The position numbers were made by a program, and so were the translations under genes. This document shows, piece by piece, positions 5,666 through 21,037 of a DNA stretch of 21,310 bases (position 1 is its first letter; each line of letters starts with the position of its first letter). The stretch comes from Candidatus Pelearchaeum maunauluense (GTDB lineage: Archaea > Thermoproteota > Nitrososphaeria_A > Caldarchaeales > Caldarchaeaceae). The notes below the pieces were generated by a model. The model did no database searches. It was not told the origin of the DNA and worked only from the letters and a program-made list of their open reading frames with translations. The DNA lies in NCBI GenBank assembly GCA_030059675.1, contig JANVYQ010000017.1:1-21310 (forward strand). The letters run 5' to 3'.

Positions 5666-5759
5666 GAATGCGTAATGTGAAGGATTGTTTATCAATAAAG
5701 GCTTCTGTAGGGCGCCAATCCTAAAAATATTCACCAATCCAACGTTATGGCGAGTGGCG

Positions 5760-6695
5760 ATGACGCAATGCTACAAATGCGGCAGAGAGGCTCCGCGCTA
5801 TCATGTAACGTATATGCGGCGGAGTATGTGTGGTGATTGTTTTGTGAGTTTCTATGAGAGGAAGGTTAAGAATGCGTATATCAAGTATGGGATGTATAAG
5901 GTTGGCCGTCGTGTTGGTGTGGCTGTATCGGGTGGTAAGGATAGCCTGGCTCTGCTGAGCGTGCTTAAGCGCGTCTTTCCACACCTAAGCCTTACGGCGA
6001 TATACCTAAACCTCGGTATAGGCGGCTACTCTGATGAGAGCGAGCGTGTCTCAAGAAAGCTGTGCGACGAGCTTGGTGTTGATTTAATCGTCTACCGTCT
6101 AGACAGCTCCGAGGGGTTTGTTGTTCCAGACTTCAGGAAGACGGCGTTCAGGAAACGTATGTGCGGCGTCTGCGGGACTGTAAAGCGCTACCTCCTCAAT
6201 AAGGTGGCGTATGAGAATGGGCTTGAGGTGATAGCGACAGGCCACAACTTGGATGATACCGTTGAGGTTTTGTTTGAGCTGTACCTGCGTGGGAATCTTG
6301 AGGAAGCGGCGCGGCTGAAGCCCGTGCTACCCAGCAACCACCCCCGGATGGCGAGTAGGATAAAGCCGCTGATAGAGATGACCGACGAGGAAGACCTCTA
6401 CTACGTTGATGCGCTCGGTATTGAGTACGCCTCCTCGTGGTGTCCCCTAGTTAAGGGCTCGCGCATGATGAACCGTAAGATGCTTATCAAGCAGATTGAG
6501 GAGAAGATCCCTGGGTATCGGCATCTTCTCTTCAAGTCTCATGTCAAGAAGATTCTGCCCAAGCTGGAGCAGTTATACAGCCAGCCCGCGCTGAATGACT
6601 GTGAGTTATGTGGGATGCCGACGACAGCGCGCATATGCAGCTATTGTAAGGTTGTTAAGAGGGTTAAGAAGGCTGAAGACGTAGAGGCTCACTGA
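5760..6695 (+). CDS. ttuA: TtuA/NcsA (TtcA/Ctu1 family) PP-loop tRNA 2-thiolation protein
   Basis: N-terminal Zn finger CYKC..CGDC, PP-loop SGGKDS, CGVCG, GHNLDD, SWCP (third Fe-S Cys) and C-terminal CELC..CSYC. Probable start ATG 5760 rather than TTG 5685. Confidence 0.88.
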   Translation: MTQCYKCGREAPRYHVTYMRRSMCGDCFVSFYERKVKNAYIKYGMYKVGRRVGVAVSGGKDSLALLSVLKRVFPHLSLTAIYLNLGIGGYSDESERVSRKLCDELGVDLIVYRLDSSEGFVVPDFRKTAFRKRMCGVCGTVKRYLLNKVAYENGLEVIATGHNLDDTVEVLFELYLRGNLEEAARLKPVLPSNHPRMASRIKPLIEMTDEEDLYYVDALGIEYASSWCPLVKGSRMMNRKMLIKQIEEKIPGYRHLLFKSHVKKILPKLEQLYSQPALNDCELCGMPTTARICSYCKVVKRVKKAEDVEAH

Positions 6696-8971
6696 GAGCC
6701 ATTCTCACTACGTTTTGAGCGTATGAGCCAGTAGAGCTTCTCAGGCGTTATTGGTATTGATAACGGCCTCACGCCCACAGCGTCTTTTATGGCGTTGGCT
6801 ATCGCTGGGGCTATTGGTATTATGCCTATCTCGCCAATCCCCTTGGCGCCGAAGGGGCCTGTTTCCTCCCCGTCCTCAACTGGTATAACCTCAATCTCAG
6901 GAGCGTCCTTTATGCTTGGGATTAGATATGTGGAGAAGTTCTGCGTCTTGAGTATCCCGTTCTCTATCTTGGCCTCCTCCATCAAGGCGTAGCCAATACC
7001 CTGGACGGCGGCTCCCTCTATCTGGCCCTGGAATGTCTGGGGGTTAATCACCTTACCAGCGTCAGGGATTACGACGAGCTTACGAACCTGCACAAATCCT
7101 GTGAGAGTATTAACCTCCACTAAGGCGAGGGCGGCGGCGAACATGTAGAAGAGGTGGGGTATCTCAAGGGTTCCAGGTATAGGCTCCACACGCGGCACCT
7201 CATACTCGCCAACCACATTGAGCGGTATGTTGTTGTTCTCCATGTAGCGCGCTATCCCTGCGTAGCTTATTCTAGTCTTCCCATCCCTTGATATGGCGTA
7301 GCCATCTAGGAAATCAAACACTTCAGGCGGCTCTCCAGACAGCCCTGCTGCCACGTGGCGCATCTTGTCAAGCATCTTACGCGCAGCGTCGGCTAGAGCA
7401 TTACCAGCGAGGAACAACTGCCGCGAAGCGGAGGTTACGCTTGTGTCTGGTGTTTCTAGGGTGTCGGCGAAGACTAGCTGTATATCATCCACGCCGCACT
7501 TGAGCATGTCCGCCGCCACCTGAGCTAATGCTGTGAGAACGCCCTGCCCAATCTCGGTTGAGCTTACCCTAACCCTAAACTTACCCTCGCGCGTTAGCTC
7601 AACCCCGACCTGGCCCTTGTCTGGGAGAGCGCCTAATGTGTAGCCCTTAACAGCCGAGGCGACGCCTATGCCGCGCCTAATCCACGGCCTAGCCGTCTCG
7701 GACTTATAGCGCTCACGCTCCCTCCAAAGCTCGTGATTAGCAGCTATCTCCAGAGCCTTCGCAATCCCAACACTTCCAATCAGCTTGTTGTTGAAAACAC
7801 CTACATCACCGCGTCGTAGGGCATTCCTAAGCCTAAGCTCTATCGGGTCCATGTTGAGTTGCTCAGCTATCGCGTCAAGCTGGCTCTCTATAGCGAATAA
7901 AACCTGGGGAGCGCCGAAACCCCTGAAAGCAGATGCGACATAGTTATTTGTATAGACCAGCGTGGCGCTTATGTCTATGTTCGGTATCTTGTATGGGCCG
8001 TTGCAGTTCTCTATCGCCACGTCCAAGACAGCTGGGCCAAGCCCCTCGTAGGCTCCTGTGTCGTAGATTATCTCGGTCTTGTTGGCTAGGAGCACGCCAT
8101 CACGCCGCGCTGCTGTCTTCATCCTGATTATACCCGCGTGGCGCTTGGTTCCTGCTATTGTTGATTCCTCGCGCGTCCATACCAGTCTAGCTGGCCTGCG
8201 CGTCTTGAGCGTGATTAGGGCTAGGTGTATCTGTACCGATATGTCATCCTTCCCCCCAAACGCTCCCCCAACATGCGGAATAACCACGCGGACAGAGTCT
8301 TCTGGGATGTTGAGCGTGGAGCATATCTCGTGCCTATCACGGTAAGGAGACTGCCCACCAGCAACTATCGTCAGTCTTCCATTCTCGTCAAAGTATGAGA
8401 TGCCAGCCTCCGTCTCTAGGTATGCGTGTATCTGAGTGCCTACCGTGTATGTGTTCTCAACTATTATGTCAGCCTCTCTGAATGCTTGCTCAACGTTTCC
8501 AAACGATATGTGTGTCTGTCTCGCTATGTTGCCGCGTTCATGAACCTTTGGACTTTCGGGCTTCATGGCCTCAAGTGGGTCCAACACAGCAGGCAGAGGC
8601 TCGTACTCGACCTCTATCATGCCTAGAGCCTCTTCAGCAGCCTCAGGCGTCTCGGCAGCCACTACAGCTATGGGGTCGCCTATGTAGCGCGTCTTATCAT
8701 CGCAGAGAACAGGCCTATCCTTGTTAAACGGCCCATACCTATTATTGGGTATGTCCTCATGTGTGAATATCGCGACGACGCCTGGATGGCTCCTGGCCTT
8801 TGATACGTCTATGCGTTTTATCCTCGCGTGCGGATATTTGCTTCTCAGCACCTTACCCCACAGCAGCCCTTCTGGGAAGAGGTCTGAAGCATACTTAGCC
8901 TGTCCTATGGCCTTCTCCAGGGCGTCGCGCCTGGGGATTGGCTTCCCAACCCAACGCTGAGCCTGAACCAA
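6689..8971 (-). CDS. Xanthine dehydrogenase family molybdopterin-binding large subunit
   Basis: LRSKYPHARI, HAYLETE, VGGAFGGK, AFRGFGAPQ, EIGQG, GQIEGAAVQGIG, GAKGIGE motifs; 760 aa. Confidence 0.95.
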   Translation of the reverse strand: MVQAQRWVGKPIPRRDALEKAIGQAKYASDLFPEGLLWGKVLRSKYPHARIKRIDVSKARSHPGVVAIFTHEDIPNNRYGPFNKDRPVLCDDKTRYIGDPIAVVAAETPEAAEEALGMIEVEYEPLPAVLDPLEAMKPESPKVHERGNIARQTHISFGNVEQAFREADIIVENTYTVGTQIHAYLETEAGISYFDENGRLTIVAGGQSPYRDRHEICSTLNIPEDSVRVVIPHVGGAFGGKDDISVQIHLALITLKTRRPARLVWTREESTIAGTKRHAGIIRMKTAARRDGVLLANKTEIIYDTGAYEGLGPAVLDVAIENCNGPYKIPNIDISATLVYTNNYVASAFRGFGAPQVLFAIESQLDAIAEQLNMDPIELRLRNALRRGDVGVFNNKLIGSVGIAKALEIAANHELWRERERYKSETARPWIRRGIGVASAVKGYTLGALPDKGQVGVELTREGKFRVRVSSTEIGQGVLTALAQVAADMLKCGVDDIQLVFADTLETPDTSVTSASRQLFLAGNALADAARKMLDKMRHVAAGLSGEPPEVFDFLDGYAISRDGKTRISYAGIARYMENNNIPLNVVGEYEVPRVEPIPGTLEIPHLFYMFAAALALVEVNTLTGFVQVRKLVVIPDAGKVINPQTFQGQIEGAAVQGIGYALMEEAKIENGILKTQNFSTYLIPSIKDAPEIEVIPVEDGEETGPFGAKGIGEIGIIPIAPAIANAIKDAVGVRPLSIPITPEKLYWLIRSKRSENGSQ

Positions 8972-8981
8972 GCCCTTTTTC

Positions 8982-9857
8982 TCACCCGCTTCTATGGGTC
9001 AGCTCCCAAAGCCCCATATACACTAGATTCACACTCATCTCGCGCCTATATTCTGCGGAGCCGCGCACATCGTCTATCGGAGATATAGACTCTAGAACAG
9101 CCTTTGCCGCGTTCCACATGCTATCCTCGTCAAGCTTTTTGCTAATTATGAGCTGCTCACACCTCCGCGCACGCACTACCGTTGGCGCCACAGCACCCAA
9201 CGCTACACGCGCGTCGCTGAACAACCCGCTACGGCTGTCTCTTCTAACCCATATCGCCGCGTTGACCACAGCTATGGCGTCACCCAGCCTAAGCCCATGC
9301 TTCAGGAAAATCCCATCCTCATCATCACTCATCGCCCTCAACCTTACCTCACAGACCAGCTCATCCTCGGCGAGGTCAAGCTTCTTGTAGCCGCGATAGA
9401 AGCTCTCTATAGGAACTTCGCGGGAGCCGCGGGAGCTTGCCACCCTAACCACAGCGCCCAGCGCGTAGAGAGGCGGCAGCGAATCAGCTGCTGGCGAGGC
9501 ATTCACAATATTACCCCCTATGGAGGCTTTATTCATTATCTGTATCGAGCCTATCGTGCTTGCCGCGTCTGCGAGAATCTTGGCGTAGTGTCTTATGGTT
9601 TCTGAGCTTGCTATCTCGCTAAACGATGTGAGCGCGCCTATCCTTATCATATCATTATCGTCCAGCTTTATGTATCGTAGCTCGTCAAGACCGTAGATAT
9701 TGAGCAAGTCCCTGCGCGGGATTATTCCATCCTTCATCTGTATTATCAAGTCCGTTCCTCCAGCGACCACCTTAATCCTCCCTTTCCTGCTGCTGAGAAT
9801 CTCAAGAGCCTCATCTAGGCTTGATGGTGTGATAACATCTATGTCGTAGAGTAGCAT
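8982..9857 (-). CDS. Xanthine dehydrogenase family FAD-binding medium subunit
   Basis: AGGTDL, IGALT, ASIGGNIVNASPAAD, PIDDVRGSAEYR. Confidence 0.95.
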   Translation of the reverse strand: MLLYDIDVITPSSLDEALEILSSRKGRIKVVAGGTDLIIQMKDGIIPRRDLLNIYGLDELRYIKLDDNDMIRIGALTSFSEIASSETIRHYAKILADAASTIGSIQIMNKASIGGNIVNASPAADSLPPLYALGAVVRVASSRGSREVPIESFYRGYKKLDLAEDELVCEVRLRAMSDDEDGIFLKHGLRLGDAIAVVNAAIWVRRDSRSGLFSDARVALGAVAPTVVRARRCEQLIISKKLDEDSMWNAAKAVLESISPIDDVRGSAEYRREMSVNLVYMGLWELTHRSG

Positions 9858-9858
9858 T

Positions 9859-10335
9859 TTATCTGCGCACCCTGAGGACGGCTTCTAGAATCTTAGCATA
9901 TCCCGTGCATCTACATAGGTTGCCGCGTAGGGCTTCTTTAACCTCCTCAACCGAGGGGTTGGGGTTGCTCATGAGGAGAGCCTTCGTCGCCATTATCAAG
10001 CCAGGTGTGCAATAGCCGCACTGCACAGCACCAGACTCGGCATATGCTGACTGAACCTCATCTGGAGACGAGTCGCGGAGAAGTCCCTCAACAGTAGTTA
10101 CGCTACGCCCCTCGACCTGCGCCATGAGCGTAAGACAGGAATGAACAGCCCTACCATCCAGCAAGACCGTACAAGCACCACAATCACCATCACCACACCC
10201 ATCCTTAGTCCCCGTAAGATGTAGAACATTACGAAGAGTCTCAAGCAGGGTATATGCTGGCGGAACCTCAACCTCCACAGGCTTACCATTCAGAACAAAA
10301 CTAAAACGCTTAACTACCGCGCTACCACGCCGCAC
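9859..10335 (-). CDS. Xanthine dehydrogenase family 2x[2Fe-2S] small subunit
   Basis: GCGDGDCGAC..SC and QCGYCTPG..GNLCRCTGY. Confidence 0.95.
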   Translation of the reverse strand: MRRGSAVVKRFSFVLNGKPVEVEVPPAYTLLETLRNVLHLTGTKDGCGDGDCGACTVLLDGRAVHSCLTLMAQVEGRSVTTVEGLLRDSSPDEVQSAYAESGAVQCGYCTPGLIMATKALLMSNPNPSVEEVKEALRGNLCRCTGYAKILEAVLRVRR

Positions 10336-10355
10336 AGAAAGATTCTCCCCCGACC

Positions 10356-10370
10356 TTAATATTAATACTT
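10356..10370 (-). promoter_or_regulatory. Putative TATA box for the molybdoenzyme operon
   Basis: ttaatattaa palindrome about 25 nt upstream of the small-subunit GTG. Confidence 0.4.
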
Positions 10371-10395
10371 TGGAATAAAGCAGAGAGTTTAATGG

Positions 10396-10641
10396 TTAAC
10401 CCAGTTCTAAGATAGAAAACGCTTTTACAGATACGTTTCTCGCCTTCTCTCTAAGTTCCCTATCCTCTGATACGAGAAAAGCGTCAAGCTTTTTAGTCAG
10501 ATGAATGTATGAAGCATCATAGAAAGTTATCTCAAGTTCTATGGCTAGTTTTAGTATTGATGAAAGATCTTCTGCAGATTTAATTTCATAGACCTTCATA
10601 TGGCTCATAATGTAGCTATACAGTTTGTCTTGTAAATACTA
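10396..10641 (-). pseudogene. PIN-domain (VapC-like) toxin C-terminal remnant
   Basis: ITFYDASYIHL...LVSEDREL is the PIN C-terminal motif; the N-terminal acidic motif is missing and an in-frame TAG lies at 10639-10641; no antitoxin visible. Confidence 0.7.
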
Positions 10642-10708
10642 TATTTCGGATATCATTCTCCAACCTAAAAGTAGCCTTATGAGGAGCTGTTTACGCGGTA
10701 ATGGAGGC

Positions 10709-11734
10709 ATGACTGTAGCGGATATTCATGGGAAGGACTTGATTTCAACCCAGGAGTGGAATGTTGAGGAGATAAGCCTGGCCCTTGACCTGGCGCGTAG
10801 CATTAAGCAGTGGCGTTATGCTGGGAATGTTCCAGAGCTCTTTAAGAATAAGACCTTCTTCATGCTGTTCTACAATACTTCGACGAGGACTAGGGCGAGT
10901 TTTGAGGCTGCCGCGACCATGTTGGGCGGCCATGCGCAGTTTATAGACTTCGCGACCACGCGCGGGGCTGAGGGCGAGGCGGTGAAGGACATAGCGAAGA
11001 TGTATGAGCGCTTCGGCCATGCTCTGGGGATTAGGATACTTGAGTCGGCGGTTGATTATGTATATGGGCGTGGTAATGCAACGATACGCGAATACGCCCA
11101 ACACGCCAAGATACCCGTAATCAACATGGCAGACGACATGTATCACCCAACCCAAGCTATGGCTGATATATTCACAATCATGGAGAAGTTTGGGGGCAAT
11201 ATAGCTGGGAAGAAGTATGTTATCATGTGGGCTTATAGTGATAAGATAAGGAGCTGGGGGAGTGTTCAGGATGAGATGCTGATAGCTACGCGGTATGGGA
11301 TGGATGTTGTCCTCGCGTATCCGCCTGGCTTTGATATAGATGAGAAGCTGGTTGAGCAGGCTCGCGAGAATGCGCGGGACTCTGGAGGTGGGCTGGAGAT
11401 AACCCACGACCTAAAGGCGGCGATGCAGGGAGCGCATGTAGTGTTCCCGCGAAGCTGGGCAAGCCATGAATGCGTCTTAACAGGCCTAAATAGATTCGGA
11501 AGAGAACGCGAGCTGGAGCTGCATAACAAGTATAGGGGCTGGAAGCTCACGCGCGAGCTGGTAGACCTGATGGATAAGCGTGGAATAATCACGCATGTTC
11601 TTCCAGTCTTCCGCGGCCAGGAGGCGGATGATGATGTGATGGACAGTAAGAGGAGTGTAATCTATGACCAGGCGGAGAACCTGCTATACGTCAGGGCCGC
11701 TATACTGGCGCTGCTTGCTGGGGATGTTGATTAG
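10709..11734 (+). CDS. YgeW-like carbamoyltransferase (ATCase/OTCase superfamily), paralog 1
   Basis: STRTR, HPTQ, HVLP, QAEN; has WAYS and FPRSWA and lacks the OTC DxxxSMG loop. ATG 10709 follows GGAGG. Confidence 0.85.
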
Positions 11735-12696
11735 GGCAGTATATGCGTCCCAGCCCTGCCCTCAAGCGCCTCCCTCACCTGGGATAGCTCGGCTATAATA
11801 GCTTCCCTACCGCCTGCTTCAACGAAGCGTATCGCTGCCAAGACCTTCGGCCCCATGCTGCCAGCGGCGAAGTGGCCTTCATCATAGTATCTCCTGGCCT
11901 CACCTACCCTGAGCTGGGTTAGCTTCTTCTGCTGTGGTGTTCCGTAGTTTATGTATGCTGCATCTACATCGGTTAGTATTATGAACCTGCTCGCGCCTAT
12001 GAGGCTCGCGAGACGCTGGCCAGCTAGGTCTTTGTCTATCACCGCCTCAACCCCACGTGCCTGTCCATCTTCCTCAACTATCGGAATCCCACCGCCGCCG
12101 CTTGCTACCACGATAAACCCAGCGTCAACCAACGTCCTTATCGCGTGCCGCTCAGCTATTATCTTGGGGTCTGGCGATGGCACCACACGCCTCCAACCTC
12201 CGCGAGCCTTATCCTCCTTAAACACATACTCAGGATGCGCCTCCCTAATCTTCTCCATCTCCTCCCTACTGTAGAACGGGCCTATCGGCTTCGTCGGATT
12301 GGCGAAGGCAGGGTCGTCTCTATCAACTATCACGCGCGTAACCACTGTTATCACGTACTTGTCTATTCCACGTCTCTTCAGCTCGTTTCTGAGGGCCTGC
12401 TGTATCATGTAGCCTATGAAGCCCTGGGTCTCCGCGCCGCATACATCCATCGGGAAGGGCGGTATGCCGTACATCTTGCTTCCAGCGTCGTGTCGTAGTA
12501 GCGTAGCTCCAACCTGCGGGCCGTTGCCATGCGTTATGACCAGGTTGTAGCCCCTCTCTACTAGGTCTGCTAGATACCGCGAGGTCGTCTCCACGTTCCT
12601 ATACTGCTCGGAGAAGGAGCCCTTCTCCCCACGTCGCAGTAAAGCGTTACCGCCAAGAGCGATTACGATAAGCTCACCATCATTACGTTGATTCAT
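11731..12696 (-). CDS. arcC: Carbamate kinase
   Basis: [52 protein letters not shown]; probable start ATG 12696. Confidence 0.95.
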
Positions 12697-12741
12697 GCAG
12701 GAGAAAGCACAACTGCTCAATAAAAAATTATGCCTCTCTTC

Positions 12742-13995
12742 TTAGATGTTCAGCACTCTCCTAAGCTCCTCTATACGCGGCTCTATGAGCGGTGGCTCGC
12801 CATATAGCTGGGTGGTTTTTTCAGCCTCCTTGAGGCCTGAGCCCGTTACTAATACGACAACCGTTTCGGTCTTGTCTATTTTTCCCGCGTCCAGCAGTTT
12901 TTTAAGCCCTGCTAGGCCAGCGGCTCCTGATGGCTCTGCGAATATCCCCTCCTTTGACGCTAGGAGCTTCATGGCCTCGGCTATTTCCTCGTCGGATACC
13001 GCCACCCCCTCGCCGCCTGAGCTTCGCGTTGCCTGCATGGCAGCATCGCCATCCCAGGGAAATGGGTCAAGCAGGCCAGATGCTATAGACCTAGGCCACT
13101 TCTCGGGCTCTATCTCCTCAAACCTCTTCCCAGAGTTAATCGCCCTCACGAGGGGCTGGTTTCCAGTGGGCTGGACTGGGAAGAGCCTGGGAGCCTCCTC
13201 CACGATTCCCAGAGCGTTTAGGTCGCGTATCCCGCGCCAAACACCCGTGAGGAGACAGCCAGAGCCTGTTGGGACAAGTATCGCATCTGGAGAGCACCAG
13301 CCAAGCTGCTCAACAACCTCATATGAGATTGTCTTAGGACCCTCAACTTGGTAGGGGTTGAAGGGGCCGAAGCTGGGTGATGGGTACCAGCCCAGCTCCT
13401 CAACGGTTCTGAGCATCATCTGCACCGTGGGGTCTCTGCCTTCTTCTATCTGCCTCACCCGCACTACATGCGCTCCTAGCAGGAGGAGCTGCGCTGCTTT
13501 GCCGCGCGCTACATCTTCTGGGACGAATGCGTAGCATCTTAGGCCTAGCGCCGCCGAGTATGCTGCTAGTGATGAGGCTGCATTGCCGCTTGAGGCTATG
13601 ACGACGTTGCTCTTACCCATCTCGGCAGCCTTAGCAGCGCCTACTGCCATGGCCCTATCCTTGAACGATGCTGTTGGGTTGCGTGTCTCGTCTTTGAGAT
13701 AGAGGTTCTTCATTCCGAGAAGCCCGGCCAGCCTCTTGGAGCGTATGAGCGGCGTGTTTCCCTCATTTAGCTGCGCGGCGAACCTCTTGTCTGCTGGCAT
13801 AAGCTCCGCGTAGCGCCACACGCCTATCTGCGGTCTCCCCGCTATCTTATCTCTGTCCAGCTTCTCCATTATCTTAACATAGTCATAGTTTATGTCCAGC
13901 CTACCGAAGTCGCGCTCCTCACACATCAGGGGATTCTGACGCGGCTCGTATCTCCTACCACACCTAGAGCATACAAGACTCACCACATACGACAA
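12742..13995 (-). CDS. Threonine synthase-like PLP enzyme (fold type II)
   Basis: N-terminal CSRC, EGNTPL, NPTASFKDR, ASSGNAA, PTGSG, FAEPSGAAG, LVTGSGLK; true substrate uncertain. Confidence 0.85.
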   Translation of the reverse strand: MSYVVSLVCSRCGRRYEPRQNPLMCEERDFGRLDINYDYVKIMEKLDRDKIAGRPQIGVWRYAELMPADKRFAAQLNEGNTPLIRSKRLAGLLGMKNLYLKDETRNPTASFKDRAMAVGAAKAAEMGKSNVVIASSGNAASSLAAYSAALGLRCYAFVPEDVARGKAAQLLLLGAHVVRVRQIEEGRDPTVQMMLRTVEELGWYPSPSFGPFNPYQVEGPKTISYEVVEQLGWCSPDAILVPTGSGCLLTGVWRGIRDLNALGIVEEAPRLFPVQPTGNQPLVRAINSGKRFEEIEPEKWPRSIASGLLDPFPWDGDAAMQATRSSGGEGVAVSDEEIAEAMKLLASKEGIFAEPSGAAGLAGLKKLLDAGKIDKTETVVVLVTGSGLKEAEKTTQLYGEPPLIEPRIEELRRVLNI

Positions 13996-13998
13996 GGC

Positions 13999-15027
13999 TT
14001 ACTCTATCACCTCAAGCCTGTTCTGATATCTCTGGAGCTGGCTCAAGCTATACTCGTCAAGCGGGTGCTCGCGCTCAGGTACTACAAGCTCCTTCTTAAC
14101 CCCGAAGACCTCTGTGGAGAAATACCTATTCCCAGAGTCGTTCACCATAGTTACTATCCTCCTAAGCTCTGGATGCCTCTTCGCGAGCTTTATCGCTGCA
14201 ACCACGTTGCAGCCTGATGATATTCCGCAGAAGATTCCCTCCTCCATTATGAGGCGGCGCGTCATTCTTATCGCCTCCTCCGAGGAGACGGTTATCACCC
14301 CATCCAGTATGCTTAGGTCCAAGTTACGCGGGATGAAGCCGTCGCCTATACCCTCAATCTTATGAGAGCCCCACCTGCCATGCGCTATTATGGGAGCCTC
14401 TGAAGGCTCAACAGCGTAAAGCCTCACTCCACTCCTCTTCTCTCTAAGAAACTTGCCAACACCGGTAAGCGTGCCGCCAGTACCCTGCGAAGCTAGGAAA
14501 CAATCCACATCACCCCCAGTCTGCTCCCAAATCTCTGGTCCAGTGGTCTTGTAGTGGGCTGCGGGGTTGTCTGGGTTGCTGAACTGGTTGGGGAACCAAT
14601 AGCGTCTCGGATGCTCGTTGATTAGGCTCTCTATCTTCTTCAGGCAGAGGTCTACGTCGCTCTCTCCGCCTGGTGTGAGCATTAGTTCTCCGCCGAAAGC
14701 TCTTATCAACTGCTTTCGCTCCTCGCTCATCCCCTCTGGCATAACCACAGTTACCCTATACCCTAGGACGCGGCCGACGAATGAGCAGGCTATCCCAGCA
14801 TTCCCCGTTGAGGCTTCTAGTATCTCCATCCCAGGCTCTAGGTCGCCCCGCTCAATAGCCCTGGTTATCATCTCCCTGTATATCCTGTCCTTCAGGCTTC
14901 CAGTGGGGTTGAAGAACTCCAGCTTGACTAGAATCTCAGCCCCGATACCCTCAGACTCAGGTATGCGGCGGAGCTTCATCAAGGGAGTATTCCCTATCGT
15001 GTCAAGAATAGACTCCGCAACCTTCAT
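13999..15027 (-). CDS. Cysteine synthase family PLP enzyme with C-terminal extension
   Basis: IGNTPL, NPTGSLKDR, EASTGNAG, NQFSNPDN, GTGGT, HKIEGIG, GISSG, DSGNRY; 3-nt gap to the thrC-like gene. Confidence 0.88.
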   Translation of the reverse strand: MKVAESILDTIGNTPLMKLRRIPESEGIGAEILVKLEFFNPTGSLKDRIYREMITRAIERGDLEPGMEILEASTGNAGIACSFVGRVLGYRVTVVMPEGMSEERKQLIRAFGGELMLTPGGESDVDLCLKKIESLINEHPRRYWFPNQFSNPDNPAAHYKTTGPEIWEQTGGDVDCFLASQGTGGTLTGVGKFLREKRSGVRLYAVEPSEAPIIAHGRWGSHKIEGIGDGFIPRNLDLSILDGVITVSSEEAIRMTRRLIMEEGIFCGISSGCNVVAAIKLAKRHPELRRIVTMVNDSGNRYFSTEVFGVKKELVVPEREHPLDEYSLSQLQRYQNRLEVIE

Positions 15028-15064
15028 AAACCTACCTTAACCGTTGCTTATTTTTAGAGTTTCG

Positions 15065-15322
15065 TCAATCTAGTAATTTCTTTAGAAGCTACTCCTCCTT
15101 AGGAACACCTACGAACGCGAGCTTACCATCTATCACTACTGCGGGAGTCGTCATAATCATATATCGTAAAGCCGCCTCTGGGTTCGCTGCCAAATCAACA
15201 ACCCTAATCTCAATATCTCTAACTTTACCCCTCATATTCTCAATAAGCCGCTGGATTGTTTTTATGGTCTGCTCGAAGCGCTGGCAGCCTGACGAGGTTA
15301 GAATCTCAACACGCTTAGCCAT
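15065..15322 (-). pseudogene. Small thioredoxin/glutaredoxin-like protein, degraded
   Basis: TPAVVIDGKLAFVGVP thioredoxin motif; CxxC reads CQRF; TAG 15089-15091 interrupts KEE*LLKKLLD*. Confidence 0.7.
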
Positions 15323-15334
15323 GTTTCACACCTA

Positions 15335-16290
15335 CTAATGCGCGTGTGGTAGGTTTTCACCCATATAAGCCATGAGCAGCGAAAAGGCGAATAACGTCAA
15401 GACCAGTATTAGCCTGTTAGCTTCCACCTTCCTCGCTGTTTGTCGTATGAGGTAGGGCGCTGAGAGTAAGGCGGCGAATAGCATCCAAGGCCCATAGATT
15501 GCGGCGGAGCTATGAACATTCAAATCTCCCAGTATTGTTTCTATAGTCTCTGACTCTGCAACCATCTGGCCTAGTGTTGCCGCTATTAGCGCGTTCCAGA
15601 GGCCGTGTATTATGCTCAACTCCCACCATGCGTGGCCGAATAGTGGCTTGGGAAGTGTGAGGGCTGCGAATATGATGAGCCCCCAGCCAGTTAGCCGTGC
15701 TACCGCCTCACGCTTAGCCGCTATTCCGTCTAGTCAAATCCAAGCCCAGAATGCCTAGTGCAGATATTGCCAGTAGTGGAATAGCCCTACCGAGCCCATG
15801 CAACGCGGCCTGTATTCCTCCAAACCCGATGCTGGCCGTTGCCGCTATGTATGTGAGGAGCAGGAAAAAGAGCGGGTTTGGGCATCCTATTCCAGCATTA
15901 CCCACTAAGACGCCCATGAGATATGATTTCAGATATTCGCCGCCTCTCAGCAGAATACCGCCGCCAACACCCAAGCTTGGGAGCGTGATTCTCAACACCC
16001 CCAACTCCGAGAGCCCGAATAGATACGCCATAACTCCAGCCAAGAGCCACATAGCTAGCGTGAGCTGGTCTAGGTAGAGTATCTTGCCCAGAGCTGCTGT
16101 GGCGAGGCCGTAGAGGCTTATTGTAGTGATGAGCCCGGCACCAAATAACAGGGATATTGTAATTCCCTTCATGGCCCTATGCCCCATGCTTAGAGGAACT
16201 ATGACAAACAACGCGGGAAGCGTGCAGGCCAGGAATATCATGGATACCCCAGCCACATAAGCCAACAAAAACACAACAAAAGTGGAGGCT
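15335..16290 (-). pseudogene. CcdA/DsbD-like transmembrane thiol-redox protein, frameshifted near 15728 and probably 5'-truncated
   Basis: AYVAGVSMIFLACTLP and GIGCPNP cysteine pair; after the shift GIAAKREAVARLTGWGLIIFAAL...HAWWELSIIHGLW runs in frame into ORF 15335-15619. Confidence 0.75.
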
Positions 16291-16337
16291 CAAGCAAAAA
16301 AGAATGTGTAATACTTGGGAGAAAGCTCTAGAACCCC

Positions 16338-17390
16338 TCACCGCATGACCATGCTCATAACAGCCTTCTGGACATGGAGCCTGTTCTCAGCCTGCTCAAA
16401 GTAGAGAGAGTAGCGGCTGCTGTCTATAACCTCGTCAACGACCTCCTGCCCCCTGTCAGCTGGGCCACAGTGCATGTACTTCCCCTTGTTGGTGAGATCC
16501 ATGAGCTCAGGCGTGCATATCCAGTCCTTGAACCTATCCTGGTAAGCCCTTGCGCCATCCTTATCCACTGAGCTATTATATGGTGGGAAGAACTTCTTCG
16601 GAGACCATGCCTTTGGATAAACGAAGTCAGCGCCCTCAAAGGCTTCCTTCATGTCATTAACTATCGTGAAGCTCCCGCCGTACCTGTCTGCGTTCTCCTT
16701 GCAGGCTTTGATTACGTGCTCCTCCAGCTCGAAGCCTGGTGGATGCGCCAGCACCACATCCATCCCGAACTGGGTGCCTATCAAGACGCAGCTCTGCGGC
16801 ACGGCTAGGGGCTTGAGCCCGCCTGAATATGCGTAGGAGACGACGAACTTCTTGCCGCGCGGCTTCGGCGCTACATCCGTTATCGCCATAATGTCTGCGA
16901 GAGCCTGGAACGGGTGGTAGATATCATCCTCCATGTTGAGGACTGGTATGCTGCTCCACTTGGCGAACTCCTGGATTACGCGATGCCCTCTCCCAATATG
17001 CCACTTGGCTGCATCACCGTATATCCTTATGGCTATCGCATCACCGTACCTGCTCAGCACGCGGGATACATCAGCTATGGACTCGGTCTGGTAGGGTATC
17101 ATGTCTTCTGGGAGGGTTGGTGTATAGACATCCTGCGGGCTTAGGAAGTGTGCGTGTCCGCCGAGCTGGTAGATTCCCGCCTCAAACGAGTTTCGCGTCC
17201 TGAGTGAGCGGTTGTAGAAGAGCATGAAGAGCGTTCTACCGCTCAGGTATGGCGTAGGCGTTCTAGACCTAAACTTCTCGCGCAGGTCTCTAGCAGCCTC
17301 AAGAATCGCCGCAACCTCTTCTTGGGAAAAGTCATTCGTGTTGAGAAAGTGCCTACCACTCATCTTACCTACATACGCGGGTGTGCTCAT
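16338..17390 (-). CDS. YgeW-like carbamoyltransferase, paralog 2
   Basis: SLRTR, HPFQ, YAYSGGLKPLAVPQS, YPKAWS, YMHCGPAD, QAENRLH; closely recalls YgeW motifs (WAYS..KPLSVPQG, YPKSW, HCLPAD); no SMG loop. Confidence 0.88.
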   Translation of the reverse strand: MSTPAYVGKMSGRHFLNTNDFSQEEVAAILEAARDLREKFRSRTPTPYLSGRTLFMLFYNRSLRTRNSFEAGIYQLGGHAHFLSPQDVYTPTLPEDMIPYQTESIADVSRVLSRYGDAIAIRIYGDAAKWHIGRGHRVIQEFAKWSSIPVLNMEDDIYHPFQALADIMAITDVAPKPRGKKFVVSYAYSGGLKPLAVPQSCVLIGTQFGMDVVLAHPPGFELEEHVIKACKENADRYGGSFTIVNDMKEAFEGADFVYPKAWSPKKFFPPYNSSVDKDGARAYQDRFKDWICTPELMDLTNKGKYMHCGPADRGQEVVDEVIDSSRYSLYFEQAENRLHVQKAVMSMVMR

Positions 17391-17506: not shown

Positions 17507-17903
17507 ATGGCTGTAGATGCTGCAACGCGGGTTAGGCTATGCTTGGAGGGTGTCGAGAGGCTTCTTGAAGAGAGTCTGTAAAGGAGTTTGAAGCAGGATT
17601 GCGTGGAGGGAGTTCGGTTAAGATGCGGGACGCCGCGGAGAAGGCATAGAGCGCCGTAGTACAAGCAACAGACGCACTCCTGCTAAGCACGTTAGGCAAG
17701 AAAACCTCAAACCACTGGGAGAGAAGACGTCTCCTAAGAGAGCTTGAACGGAGCAGGCTAGAGATTGAGAAGCTGGGCTTGAGAGATAGATACTCGGCAA
17801 GGGAGAAGAACCTGTATGAAATGGTCTTTTATAACGGGATAATAGATGTTTGGAGAAGGCTAGGCGGTATCTTGATGATATACGTATGCGGGTTAGAGCT
17901 TAG
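17507..17903 (+). pseudogene. PaREP1/HEPN family protein, multiply disrupted
   Basis: Reassembled by hand: MAVDAATRVRLCLEGVERLLE/ESVKEFEAG...MRDAAEKA*SAVVQATDALL...NHWERRRLL...LRDRYSAREKNLYEMVFYNG.../LEKARRYLDDIR. TAG 17647-17649 replaces the W of AAEKAW; frameshifts near 17570 and 17850. Confidence 0.75.
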
Positions 17904-19228
17904 GTTAGGAGTATGTTGTAGGCTGCTGGTATTATGTAGCCCACGGCCAGGAGGAGGCCTGTGGTTGTGGCTAGTTTTATGTTGGTTGCGAGGCCTGGTA
18001 TCATGTAGTAGGGGTTTCCGTAGGTTTCGCTGATTTGCTTTATAGCCTTTCTGGCTGTTGGTATTGTGAGGAGCGCGAGGAGCGTTGTGAAGGGCGCGTA
18101 GCCCGCCGCGAAGGTGAGCACTATGATTACATAGACCAGCGCTATGAGAGCCTTGTAGAGCTTCATCACAGTTTGGTCGTCAAGCCTCACTACCAGCGTT
18201 CTCTTCCCAGCTAGGGCGTCTGCCTTCTTGTCTGGTATCTCGTTGGCATACAGTATGAGCGCTATGAGGATACCCACGGGGAGCGAGGCTAGGAGAGGCG
18301 CTATGTGGAAGCTCTGGGTCTGGACGTAGTAGCTTCCCAAGACTATTACTGGGCCGAAGCCTACTCCAACGGCTATCTCTCCCACGCCGCGGTATGCGAG
18401 CTTGAAGGGAGGGGCTGTGTAGAAGAAGCTTAGGACGAACCCTATGAGCATTAGGGAGAGTATCGGGACGAGCCCGCGTGTTATGGCTAGGTATAGCCCT
18501 ATTCCAAGACCTAGGGCGTAGAACGAGGAGAACATGGCGACCGCGGCTGACGGTGTTATGAGGCCATACTGGAGAGCTCTTGAGCCTCCGCTGAACGGTG
18601 TAGGTGTGGTATTCACGTTATCGGCGCCGAGCTTCGTGTCGTAGTAGTCGTTAGCCATGTTGAGGCCTAGGTGTATGGCTGCAAGCCCGACTAGCGTAAG
18701 TATGAAGAGCAGGGGGTCGAATATTCCGTGATACGCCGCCACCGCAGCGCCCAAGAGCGTGGGTACGACTGTAGCTATTAGGAAAGGCAGGCGCGTAACC
18801 CTGAAGAAGAGGGAGAATAGTGAGAGGGCTGGCTTGAGCTTCCTGCCCAGCTCACGCTCAAGCAACTGCATGTAACGACGGCCGCGCGGAACCGAGATTT
18901 CACAATACTGGAAGAAATGAACCCTATTCTCATCCCAGCTATAACGCCTAGACGGAGTGAAACGTATCTCGTCTTGCTTCTCCTCTACGCCACCCCATAG
19001 TACGATGTAGCGTCTATCCATGTAGCCGCCTGTGGGTAGCGGTGTTATGTGGTTGAATAGGAGACTAACCTTATCTGAGCTTCTCTTCTTCAGCCAGTCA
19101 CGTTTCTCTAATATGACAGTCTCATCCTCTATGCGGTAGCCTGACGGGTAGCTGAACGGATAGCCCTCGTCATCCACGTAGGTTACTATCGCCTCGCCAT
19201 ACTCCCTAACATCCTCCAACATGGTCAT
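17900..19228 (-). CDS. MenA-like UbiA-family prenyltransferase fused to an N-terminal ~130-aa PNPOx-like soluble domain
   Basis: TRLPFL, NDYYDTKLGAD..FSGGSR, YTAPPFKLAYRGVGE, NEIPDKKADALAGKRTL; the N-terminus AIVTYVDDEGYPFSYP...VSLLF...YIVLWG mirrors the upstream split-barrel protein. Confidence 0.88.
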   Translation of the reverse strand: MTMLEDVREYGEAIVTYVDDEGYPFSYPSGYRIEDETVILEKRDWLKKRSSDKVSLLFNHITPLPTGGYMDRRYIVLWGGVEEKQDEIRFTPSRRYSWDENRVHFFQYCEISVPRGRRYMQLLERELGRKLKPALSLFSLFFRVTRLPFLIATVVPTLLGAAVAAYHGIFDPLLFILTLVGLAAIHLGLNMANDYYDTKLGADNVNTTPTPFSGGSRALQYGLITPSAAVAMFSSFYALGLGIGLYLAITRGLVPILSLMLIGFVLSFFYTAPPFKLAYRGVGEIAVGVGFGPVIVLGSYYVQTQSFHIAPLLASLPVGILIALILYANEIPDKKADALAGKRTLVVRLDDQTVMKLYKALIALVYVIIVLTFAAGYAPFTTLLALLTIPTARKAIKQISETYGNPYYMIPGLATNIKLATTTGLLLAVGYIIPAAYNILLT

Positions 19229-19229
19229 C

Positions 19230-19706
19230 TCACCTCACGTATATCTGGGGCTCCCTACTCATGTCCCCATCATTCCAGACATACAGCTTACGCGGCGTTA
19301 GCTCTATTATGCTACGCTCCCAGAAGAGGGGAAGCGCTATACGCTGCTTAACATAAGCATCTATGTAAGGCTCCTTCTTACGCCAAAGCGGTAGTAGCTT
19401 CTCCCACCCATGATGAATATCCTCCTCAAGAACGCGAGCATCCCCCTGAACCAACACTACATGAAACTCATCCGACTTGATGAAGCGCCTATTGCTGAAC
19501 AGTGCAGAAACACGCTGATTCCTCTTAATATACTCCAGCTTCTTACTGAAAAGAACGCTTGATGTGAAGTAGATATTCCCGCTACCGCGCTCATAGAGCG
19601 GGAGTAATGGATGGGTTACTGGTCTGCCGTTCTCGTCTATGCATGTAAAGGCGCAGACCAGCGCGTTCTCAAGTATCTTCTCAACATGGTTGGGTATGAA
19701 GGTCAT
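19230..19706 (-). CDS. Pyridoxamine 5'-phosphate oxidase-like (split beta-barrel flavin/F420/heme-binding) protein
   Basis: FTCIDENGRPVTHP, KKLEYIKRNQRVSALF, VLVQGDARV, IELTPRK; 1-nt gap to the prenyltransferase. Confidence 0.85.
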   Translation of the reverse strand: MTFIPNHVEKILENALVCAFTCIDENGRPVTHPLLPLYERGSGNIYFTSSVLFSKKLEYIKRNQRVSALFSNRRFIKSDEFHVVLVQGDARVLEEDIHHGWEKLLPLWRKKEPYIDAYVKQRIALPLFWERSIIELTPRKLYVWNDGDMSREPQIYVR

Positions 19707-19747: not shown

Positions 19748-20914
19748 TTACCACTTGCTAGTGGTAAAAGGTTCACGGGTAGCTAAAAGCCCCAAACTAG
19801 GAAGAACCGAGGCAACAGCCAGCAGAAGCCATGCTACAACAAAGCCAGAGCCATCAGCCACGATAGAGAAGAGCGTAGGCGCCAGCGAAGCCCCCAACAA
19901 TTGTGTGGAGTTCACTATACTCACAACTAGTGAGGCGTATCGTTGCTCTATGTCGCGGTACTGTATAGCGGTTGAGTAGGTTAGTGTGTATGACACACCA
20001 GCGCTGAACCCCATGATTATTATGGCGAGTAAGACTGGTGGGAAGCTGCGTATTGCGAGGATTGCTATTGCGCCTGAGATTGAGAGGTTAAACAGGAGCA
20101 GTAGTTTAATCCTTGTTCTCAGCTTGTCGGAGATTCTACCACCTACGGGAGAGCCGAAGACACTAAACACCTCCAAAAGGGATGCGGATATTCCAGCAAC
20201 CGCCAGCGACACACCAACCTCGAGCGTCATATACACTATGATGAACTGAACAACCACGAACCACGCTCCCCCAATACCTGTTAGAGCTACTGCCAATAGC
20301 CAGACATCGCGATGTCTGAGCACATGCCTTAGACCTTGACCAAATCCTCTACTCCCACTCTCGCGCGGTAGCCCTGATGTTACTATTGTATTCTGTAGAG
20401 CCATAGCCAAGCCTAGTGCGCCTGCCAGGACTAGGGAGTAGCGCCAGCCTATACTGTTAATGAAGACCGTCCAGAGGCCGAATCCCAGTATGCCGCCCAC
20501 GCTGAAGGCGCTGTTGTATATTCCAATAGCGAAGCCCCTCTCGTTCTCTGAGAAGAGTGGAGAGAAGACCCCGATTGCTGGGCTGAAGAAGAACGCCATA
20601 CCAGCGCCCATCAGGAACCGCAGTATGACTAGAGCCTCGTAGGTTGGTGCAAGCCCTGAGAGAGCTGCGAAGAGGGATGATGAAGCAAGACCAATCATAG
20701 CTGTGTTTCTAGAGCCTATGCGCGCAGCCACGAGGCCGGCGGGTATCTGGAAAACACCCACACCCAGTAGGAAAGCAGTACCAACAGCGCCAAGCTCAGC
20801 CACCTCCAGTCGAAACTCAGAAGCTATAAGCGGAAGAGCTGGCGAGAGGTTAAACCAATTAACTGCATAGACTATCCTAGACGCGGCCAGCGATAGAAGC
20901 ACAACCCAACGCAT
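19748..20914 (-). CDS. MFS transporter
   Basis: About 12 hydrophobic segments; motif-A-like GLVAARIGSR and GGRISDKLRTR; LRFLMGAG; ERGFAIG. Probable start ATG 20914 (track start 20962). Confidence 0.9.
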   Translation of the reverse strand: MRWVVLLSLAASRIVYAVNWFNLSPALPLIASEFRLEVAELGAVGTAFLLGVGVFQIPAGLVAARIGSRNTAMIGLASSSLFAALSGLAPTYEALVILRFLMGAGMAFFFSPAIGVFSPLFSENERGFAIGIYNSAFSVGGILGFGLWTVFINSIGWRYSLVLAGALGLAMALQNTIVTSGLPRESGSRGFGQGLRHVLRHRDVWLLAVALTGIGGAWFVVVQFIIVYMTLEVGVSLAVAGISASLLEVFSVFGSPVGGRISDKLRTRIKLLLLFNLSISGAIAILAIRSFPPVLLAIIIMGFSAGVSYTLTYSTAIQYRDIEQRYASLVVSIVNSTQLLGASLAPTLFSIVADGSGFVVAWLLLAVASVLPSLGLLATREPFTTSKW

Positions 20915-21037
20915 ATTATAGTGAGGCTGTTCCAAACTATCTGGCTGCTCACCGAAAAGCACCTAAAGAATATTCCAACAACCAGCTAGCGCTTTAACAT
21001 TTTTAGTCCCTACCAATAAATATCAAGAACAATAATC

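Follow-up and report, generated by a model that had tools for sequence, protein, structure and literature searches.

In 2025 the SsnA-type route of anaerobic urate breakdown was resolved in gut bacteria, and a gene cluster on a contig of the archaeon Candidatus Pelearchaeum maunauluense (order Caldarchaeales; GenBank JANVYQ010000017.1), analysed here over its whole 21,310 bp and referred to as the window, suggests a Caldarchaeales version of it. As outlined in two preprints (bioRxiv 10.1101/2025.05.19.654654 and 10.1101/2025.04.24.650524), the known route runs from urate to 2,8-dioxopurine, through YgfK and SsnA to ureidomethylhydantoin and through HyuA to 2,3-diureidopropionate, from which YgeW takes one ureido group with phosphate and YgeY the other with water; the diaminopropionate left over becomes pyruvate through YgeX, and ATP is formed by YqeA. 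The ureido group assigned to YgeW differs between the two preprints. Li et al. described Chloroflexota SsnA clusters that have a luciferase-family F420 enzyme instead of YgfK/UacX, and Liu et al. described ATP formation from 2,3-diureidopropanoate by YgeW together with YqeA; the BLAST thresholds given by Liu et al. (YgeW 63%, YgeY 53%, YgeX 50%, SsnA 33%) would miss the archaeal variant. Archaea are mentioned in the main text of neither preprint, although extended data and node lists could hold archaeal members. We found no published account of carbamate kinase, xanthine dehydrogenase or an SsnA purine route in this archaeal group, and PMC10547907 contains none of the words 'xanthine', 'carbamate' and 'carbamoyl'.

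The window is the whole of contig C21 of the host genome (G000; 1.79 Mb, 21 contigs, 94% complete), and between positions 6689 and 17390 it holds eight intact open reading frames (ORFs) for six enzymes, one of them an Xdh-family enzyme of three subunits. Judged from sequence comparison, these genes probably represent the lower half, and one of the two molybdenum hydroxylases, of an archaeal SsnA-type reductive purine/urate (2,8-dioxopurine) pathway, apparently a new archaeal form of the pathway described in 2025. A sequence-only reading of this DNA had listed seven intact genes, and its gene families and their location held good while the number did not. The eight ORFs are as follows:

6689-8971, minus strand: XdhL, molybdopterin-binding large subunit, 760 aa (Pfam Ald_Xan_dh_C, MoCoBD_1 and MoCoBD_2)
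8982-9857, minus strand: XdhM, FAD-binding subunit, 291 aa (FAD_binding_5 and CO_deh_flav_C)
9859-10335, minus strand: XdhS, 2x[2Fe-2S] subunit, 158 aa (Fer2 and Fer2_2)
10709-11734, plus strand: CT1, a divergent carbamoyltransferase (CT), 341 aa (OTCace_N and OTCace)
11731-12720, minus strand: carbamate kinase (CK), 329 aa (arcC TIGR00746, 438.4 bits against a cut-off of 358.25)
12742-13995, minus strand: ThrC-like fold-II pyridoxal phosphate (PLP) enzyme with an N-terminal Cys-rich extension, 417 aa (PALP; PRK08197, 316 bits, cut-off 303)
13999-15027, minus strand: CysK-like fold-II PLP enzyme, 342 aa (cysK, 366 bits, cut-off 351)
16338-17390, minus strand: CT2, a second divergent carbamoyltransferase, 350 aa (OTCace_N and OTCace)

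Family calls were made at the curated cut-offs of Pfam and NCBIfam, and Escherichia coli K-12 proteins of the ygeW-ssnA region were searched against the host genome. The cluster was compared across 41 Caldarchaeales genomes ('Aigarchaeota') with genera labelled g1-g10, in which g1-g4 make up the host's own family f1 (18 genomes, 17 besides the host), and the best 80 of 351 CT1 loci found in a GTDB-species collection were surveyed for neighbouring genes. The linkage of CK, CT1 and CT2 is not due to chance, with CK abutting CT1 in 17/17 other f1 genomes and CT1 and CT2 lying at most 6 kb apart on one contig in 15 of these 17, the remaining two being split over contigs. In g3, including a single-contig genome, the genes form a supercluster that reads ABC-AdeD, then LLM-SsnA-XdhMSL-CT1, then CK-ThrC-(V4R)-CysK-CT2-UbiA-PNPOx-MFS, where LLM is an F420-type luciferase-like oxidoreductase whose gene always adjoins the SsnA-like gene. 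The order in g8 is AdeD-HyuA-ThrC-SsnA-LLM with CT2 a few kb off, and a second locus of the g8 genome G027 reads CysK-XdhMSL-CK-CT1-XdhSML-deaminase. The sequence-only reading had proposed a check of neighbourhood conservation, and in these sister genera the cluster is indeed contiguous with SsnA-like and hydantoinase genes. A single Nitrososphaerales locus has, within 21 kb, both Xdh types, CT2, CysK, ThrC, CT1, a deaminase, SsnA, LLM and CK. Bathyarchaeia have a compact CT2-CK-CT1-ThrC-CysK-amidohydrolase-ABC core, and partial cores occur in Desulfurococcaceae and Hadarchaeota. Among the best 80 of the 351 CT1 loci, the flanking partners were CK (38), CT2 (30), ThrC-like (28), XdhL (24), CysK-like (22), LLM (12) and SsnA-like (11) genes, and of 37 loci flanked on each side by 8 kb or more, 24 had one or more partners.

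The same genes are inherited together. CT1, CT2 and the SsnA-like (at least 53% identity), CysK-like (at least 63%) and ThrC-like (at least 48%) genes were found in an identical set of 22 of the 41 genomes and in 0/19 others, a count of related genomes that are not independent and that amounts at genus level to six genera with the set and four without. The 22 comprise all 18 f1 genomes, 3/3 of g8 and 1/1 of g9, and the 19 belong to g5, g6, g7 and g10. Orthologs of the window-type XdhL (63-96% identity) followed the same division, occurring in 21 of the 22 CT1-bearing genomes and in 0/19 others. Outside Caldarchaeales, all 10 tested genomes with a CT1 homolog (five with a 'lone' CT1 and five with a core cluster) had an SsnA-like gene at 48-54% identity, a comparison that has no matched negative set, and 5/5 of the 'lone'-CT1 genomes had CK over the cut-off. 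In the cultured Thermogladius sp. KZ2Tp1 (NZ_CP151274.1), the SsnA-like, CK and CT2 genes fall within 7 kb, and CT1 is about 20 kb away. Every gene of the cluster comes from a common family, and the CysK-like and ThrC-like proteins pass housekeeping cut-offs, so the cluster could be read as a chance neighbourhood of housekeeping genes (ArgF-like, arcC, cysK, thrC and a CoxL-type dehydrogenase) with no common pathway. We regard this as extremely improbable, as order and adjacency are kept over four genera, the CT2-CK-CT1-ThrC-CysK core recurs in Bathyarchaeia, the phyletic pattern is identical (22 versus 19) and housekeeping paralogs lie elsewhere. Synteny and co-inheritance therefore support the earlier proposal that this is an archaeal variant of the xdh/ygeW/ygeX/yqeA urate cluster.

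Further candidate pathway genes lie outside the window, at 45-62 kb of contig C2, where an SsnA-like gene, an LLM gene, adenine deaminase (475 bits, cut-off 472), D-hydantoinase/dihydropyrimidinase (476 bits, cut-off 393; 35.7% identical to E. coli HyuA), a Bmp/PnrA-type binding protein (126 bits), an ABC ATPase with permeases and another XdhL were identified. SsnA, the marker enzyme of the known pathway, is the top NCBIfam match of the SsnA-like protein (379 bits; 31.7% identity to E. coli SsnA), and the best matches of the E. coli SsnA, HyuA and YqeA queries were, respectively, the C2 SsnA-like protein, the C2 hydantoinase and the window CK. A second Xdh lies on contig C18 with its genes in the order M-S-L, and after it comes an amidohydrolase gene, the top match for E. 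coli GuaD. Searches of the genome with E. coli YgfK, XanQ, GhxQ, UacT and YgfT gave no match. Pathway families were searched in five genomes (G000, G003, G006, G004 and G027), and there YgfK (best 55 bits versus 835), YgeY (best 158 versus 321.5) and YgeX (best 44 versus 274) exceeded their cut-offs in 0/5; UacX was not searched for. CofE was over the cut-off in 5/5. The genome search for SsnA, HyuA, YgeY and UacT that had been suggested from the sequence thus returned the first two, as the SsnA-like and hydantoinase genes of C2, and neither of the others. The same reading had noted the absence of arginine and agmatine deiminases, and in the five genomes arginine deiminase was found in 0/5 and agmatine deiminase in 1/5, about 22 kb from the CT2 locus and not adjoining the cluster; a supply of substrate to the carbamoyltransferases by either deiminase was rejected on these counts.

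In comparison to the E. coli/Clostridium pathway, which counts XdhD/DOPDH among its enzymes, the archaeal genes share the Xdh enzymes, an SsnA-like protein beside a reductase, a hydantoinase, a carbamoyltransferase beside a carbamate kinase, fold-II PLP enzymes and the logic of converting carbamoyl phosphate to ATP. They differ in the archaeal host and in being spread here over three contigs, and likewise in the lack of YgfK, YgeY and YgeX, where LLM takes the place of YgfK, two carbamoyltransferases of new subfamilies that of YgeW and the hydrolase, and ThrC and CysK types that of diaminopropionate ammonia-lyase. Arginine and agmatine deiminase pathways and the Rubrobacter ureidoglycine transcarbamylase (UGTCase) offer a further likeness in the coupling of a catabolic carbamoyltransferase to carbamate kinase for substrate-level ATP. 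In the proposed pathway, purines would be imported by the PnrA-type ABC importer and deaminated by adenine deaminase and the guanine-deaminase-like amidohydrolase, and the two Xdh-family enzymes would form urate or 2,8-dioxopurine. LLM and the SsnA-like protein may then dearomatise and open the six-membered ring, and the hydantoinase would open the five-membered ring to give 2,3-diureidopropionate. CT1 would phosphorolyse one ureido group and CT2 the other, standing in for YgeW and the hydrolytic YgeY, and the single CK would convert the carbamoyl phosphate to ATP, up to two per purine. Phosphorolysis of both groups is the simplest reading because YgeY was not found and two co-inherited carbamoyltransferases accompany one CK. 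Since YgeX was not found either, the C3 amine should fall to one or both of the ThrC-like and CysK-like enzymes, which would dispose of 2,3-diaminopropionate or a mono-ureido form. The shared carbamoyl phosphate pool and CK would also feed the canonical ornithine transcarbamylase (OTCase) and pyrimidine synthesis.

The same architecture might serve a different substrate, such as hydantoins, pyrimidines degraded by way of 3-ureidopropionate, or, on the model of Rubrobacter UGTCase, allantoate/ureidoglycine. The C2 hydantoinase scores as a dihydropyrimidinase at the 476 bits given above, 13 XdhL loci occur in the genome, contig C16 holds a second Xdh-amidohydrolase-F420 LLM-CysM-like group, and a carbamoyltransferase-carbamate kinase route for allantoate is on record (PMC4016543). 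The amidohydrolase beside LLM is, however, SsnA-like by its best match, and the adenine deaminase, the guanine-deaminase-like enzyme and the PnrA-type purine-nucleoside binding protein occur in the same superclusters; uricase was found in 0/41 genomes, and two carbamoyltransferases suit a diureido intermediate. Another substrate is thus rather unlikely, and a purine substrate is preferred. No PurM was found in 38 of the 41 Caldarchaeales genomes and no PurD in 39, which suggests purine auxotrophy across the order and life on imported purines, and such a lifestyle fits a cluster of importer, deaminase and degradation genes. As the hosts apparently lack de novo purine synthesis and CarAB, the cluster bears on purine salvage, nitrogen and carbamoyl phosphate balance.

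The sequence-only reading had called CT1 and CT2 YgeW-like, which their carbamate kinase context bears out and their scores against the YgeW models (162 and 155 bits, cut-offs 453/500) do not, so neither is YgeW proper. Bit scores for CT1 and CT2 were 225 and 282.4 for acetylornithine transcarbamylase (AOTCase; cut-off 288) and 211 and 235 for OTCase (cut-off 306). The two proteins share 37% identity. The longest CT1 ORF begins at TTG 10625, and the probable true start was placed at ATG 10709 because the CT1 of a same-genus relative has 341 aa and begins MTVADIHG. Transcarbamylases carry the superfamily motifs Fx(E/K/N/D/A/Q)xSxRT, HPxQ and HxLP (Shi et al. 2015, PMC4581275), and these are present in both proteins, as STRT, HPTQ and HVLP in CT1 and as FYNRSLRT, HPFQ and HCGP in CT2, the last of which deviates by Gly in place of Leu. 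The CT1 motifs were invariant among 8 orthologs and at least 90% conserved among 41. CT1 has a short 80's loop and an extended 120's loop; both proteins have a 10-residue insertion in the 120's loop and a 6-residue insertion at the site of the proline-rich loop, where CT2 has two Pro and CT1 none. In the knotted transcarbamylases, a trefoil knot goes with a proline-rich loop and an extended 120's loop.

Assignment to known transcarbamylase families was rejected in each case. An OTCase identity failed on the missing DxxxSMG motif of the 240's loop (CT2 reads PKAWSPKKFF there) and on scores under the cut-off, and a canonical OTCase with DVFVSMG lies elsewhere in the genome (C16:131354-132307, 405 bits). 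AOTCases are marked by Trp77 in the 80's loop, Glu92, Asn185 and Lys302 and by an arginine-cluster context (PMC4581275). At these four sites, read by hand from HMMER alignments to 3m5c, CT1 has a deleted loop, Gly, Ser and Glu, and CT2 has Tyr, Thr, Pro and Glu, the 282.4 bits of CT2 nearly reaching the cut-off. Xanthomonas AOTCase (PDB 3kzc/3kzk) is the closest by sequence (CT2, E 1e-61) and by fold (CT1 model, template modelling (TM) score 0.88) and shares FxNxSxRT and the extended 120's loop, but CT1 and CT2 lack its signature residues and their context is not arginine biosynthesis. YTCases, the knotted family of YgeW, have a longer chain, extra N- and C-terminal helices, an extended 240's loop and a nearby carbamate kinase (PMC4581275); CT1 and CT2 resemble them in the catabolic context beside carbamate kinase, the sole mark that fits, and differ in being shorter (341 and 350 aa versus 396), in lacking the extra helices and the long 240's loop, and in scoring far under the cut-offs. 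SOTCase-like, PTCase and UGTCase identities were ruled out by motifs and cut-offs, with SOTCase chains reaching only 69-86 bits and the H(T/S)LP of UGTCase reading HVLP in CT1 and HCGP in CT2.

The AlphaFold2 model of CT1 (pLDDT 96.5) found AOTCase as its best PDB match, and its Foldseek TM scores to AOTCase (0.88), Pyrococcus furiosus OTCase (0.86) and Enterococcus faecalis YTCase (0.87) are too close to tell knotted from unknotted relatives. A quickly built tree placed the 23 CT1 rows and the 11 CT2 rows in separate, well-supported clades, and CT1, CT2 and E. coli YgeW were joined apart from the OTCases with an SH-aLRT (SH-like approximate likelihood ratio test) support of 91, in a topology with long branches and no AOTCase, SOTCase or PTCase included. 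CT1 and CT2 were also the sole matches (30-32% identity) of E. coli YgeW in the genome at E<=1e-5. We infer from these comparisons that CT1 and CT2 are two new transcarbamylase subfamilies, YgeW-like in working and outside the YgeW family. The alternative raised in the sequence-only reading, that the genes might be unlinked in related genomes or the transferases group with ArgF or AOTCase, disagrees with the kept linkage, the separate canonical OTCase and the missing OTCase and AOTCase residues. A 7.8-kb contig labelled Candidatus Acidoferrum carries a CT1 near-identical to that of a Bathyarchaeota metagenome-assembled genome (end branches 0.011 and 0.002) with the same neighbours, and is probably a mis-binned archaeal contig.

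The two PLP enzymes appear from their distribution to be pathway-specific paralogs. The ThrC-like protein carries the lysine motif SFKDR and the CysK-like protein SLKDR and STGNAG, and orthologs of either occur in no genomes but the 22 with CT1. The host genome has four further ThrC-family paralogs, and the pathway-lacking genomes have more distant ThrC paralogs (35-43%) that the 22 carry too. A CysM-like paralog (37-41%), on C16 in the host, is spread over genomes with and without the pathway, 37 of the 41 in all, and was missing at that identity in 1/6 of g7 and all three of g10. By type the PLP enzymes are ThrC- and CysK-like and not counterparts of YgeX. Among CysK relatives, enzymes that act on ureido compounds are known, and one such enzyme, O-ureido-L-serine synthase (PDB 3x43), was among the matches.

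CK converges on CT1 with a 4-bp overlap, is present in one copy by a search of the host genome and is 48% identical to E. coli YqeA. CarB was over the cut-off in 20 of the 41 genomes, namely all of g5, g6, g7 and g8, one of the 18 f1 genomes and none of g9 and g10, which leaves 19 of 23 genomes outside f1 with the gene. The distribution of CK is nearly the opposite. Because the two are near-complementary, CK probably also supplies carbamoyl phosphate for biosynthesis in f1 and is not purely catabolic there. The earlier description of an ATP-yielding cluster is therefore conditional. Pyrococcus carbamate kinase acts as a carbamoyl-phosphate synthetase, and the whole module could be anabolic, with CK in that role, CT1 and CT2 building ureido compounds from channelled carbamoyl phosphate and the PLP 'synthases' supplying the amine. 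Of the f1, g9 and g10 genomes, all of which have CK, only one, among the 18 of f1, has a detected CarB, and all 16 kinase-less genomes (g5, g6 and g7) have CarB; CysK and ThrC are biosynthetic types, and the carbamoyltransferase equilibrium favours carbamoylation (PMC4016543). Yet CT1 and CT2 track the SsnA-like gene and not CK, which g10 has alone; g8 has CarB and still keeps CK beside CT1; the canonical OTCase is unlinked to the cluster; and the cluster has deaminases and an importer around it, as is typical for catabolic or salvage genes. An anabolic module is accordingly unlikely.

A related possibility is that the module is bidirectional or runs in reverse as a route that builds the purine ring. 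Diaminopropionate and two carbamoyl phosphate would give diureidopropionate, whose rings the hydantoinase and the SsnA-like protein would close, and F420-linked aromatisation to 2,8-dioxopurine would precede the Xdh steps, in a mirror of pyrimidine synthesis by aspartate transcarbamylase, dihydroorotase and dihydroorotate dehydrogenase. All steps are of a reversible type with no hydrolytic decarbamoylase, CK is the sole source of carbamoyl phosphate, PLP 'synthase' types could make diaminopropionate from activated serine, and the near-general lack of PurM and PurD described above would agree with such a route. However, the lack of PurM and PurD extends to sister genera that do not have the module, deaminases are the neighbours, and 2,8-dioxopurine and urate are not nucleotide precursors, so that we consider this reading very unlikely.

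Several results weigh against the degradative purine pathway that we prefer. Gene presence, linkage and co-inheritance were observed directly, and all of the chemistry, including the substrates of CT1, CT2 and the PLP enzymes, we infer from them. The roles of the individual Xdh enzymes are not readable from sequence. The SsnA-like protein falls under both SsnA equivalog cut-offs (379 versus 444 and 353 versus 455), and the FO synthase CofH was over its cut-off in just 1/5 genomes. M20 peptidases elsewhere in the genome (best 158 bits, YgeY model) make a hydrolytic step possible. The PLP enzymes pass curated cysteine-synthase and threonine-synthase cut-offs, which mark biosynthetic types and not lyases, and the published pathway intermediates are (R)-configured, which is unusual for CysK/ThrC chemistry (bioRxiv 10.1101/2025.05.19.654654 and 10.1101/2025.04.24.650524). 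In f1, where CarB was seen in 1/18 genomes, CK is the sole carbamoyl-phosphate enzyme detected, g10 has CK without CT1, CT2 and SsnA, and an anabolic role of CK in some lineages is certain. Finally, 13 of the 37 CT1 loci with full flanks had no partner within 8-10 kb.

If the preferred pathway is correct, nucleobases would be a fermentable energy source in hot, energy-poor habitats, and functions would be gained for two unassigned transcarbamylase subfamilies. Phosphorolysis of both ureido groups would yield two ATP per purine and not one.

The top NCBIfam model of the window XdhL is pucD (645 bits, under the cut-off of 784), and the nearest solved structures to the Xdh enzyme are nicotinate dehydrogenase and 4-hydroxybenzoyl-CoA reductase. 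Directly after GGxFGxK the window type has Asp, the C18 type Ser and E. coli XdhA/XdhD Gln, and the C-terminal Glu is kept in all of these. The match of one XdhL locus of the genome, C2:359466-361541, falls into three pieces, and this gene is possibly broken. The C16 group (C16:10905-16919) consists of an XdhL paralog (787 aa), an amidohydrolase (398 aa), an F420-dependent LLM (TIGR03619, 207 bits, cut-off 167) and the widespread CysM-like gene, and with this same architecture it may be a parallel pathway for another heterocycle. The 25-kb contig C18, with the second Xdh and the deaminase, also carries a Sec-type nitrous-oxide reductase NosZ (613 bits, cut-off 625).

The remaining elements between and around the cluster genes are listed below:

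10396-10638, minus strand: pseudogene, the C-terminal 80 aa of a PIN/VapC-like gene, a remnant outside the pathway
15089-15322, minus strand: thioredoxin-like small ORF (Thioredoxin_3, 44.8 bits)
15335-15619, minus strand: open ORF for a 94-aa membrane protein
15714-16274, minus strand: DsbD_TM-like ORF (weak DsbD_TM, 21.9 bits, under the cut-off)
17900-19228, minus strand: UbiA prenyltransferase (Pfam)
19230-19706, minus strand: PNPOx-like flavin/F420-binding protein (Pfam)
19748-20962, minus strand: MFS transporter (Pfam)

The sequence-only reading had placed only pseudogenes between the cluster genes, and this applies to the first element and not to the next three. Over 74 aa the remnant has 77% identity to the C-terminal end of a 149-aa ORF that is intact in a same-genus genome, where an 82-aa antitoxin-like ORF followed by this 149-aa ORF (weak PIN, 20.5 bits) lies between CT1 and XdhS. 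The three ORFs at 15089-16274 are open, are 81-92% identical in a same-genus genome and were found in this genus alone, and this insert is probably unrelated to the pathway. Upstream of CT2, the UbiA-PNPOx-MFS order is kept in g1-g4 and is not found in g8 or Bathyarchaeia, and a 509-bp gap without a convincing ORF separates CT2 from UbiA. Scans of the window for tRNA and Rfam families found nothing. Three DNA sequencing runs from a single study contain 6-10% of the sampled words, and none of the listed runs is RNA. A candidate small-molecule sensor of the cluster occurs in g3, where an ORF of 143 aa with a V4R domain (50 bits) separates the CysK-like gene from the ThrC-like gene; the window has no V4R ORF. 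At the other end of the cluster, a TtuA-like tRNA 2-thiolation PP-loop gene (5685-6695, plus strand) converges on XdhL with a 7-bp overlap, and a same-genus genome has this neighbour too.

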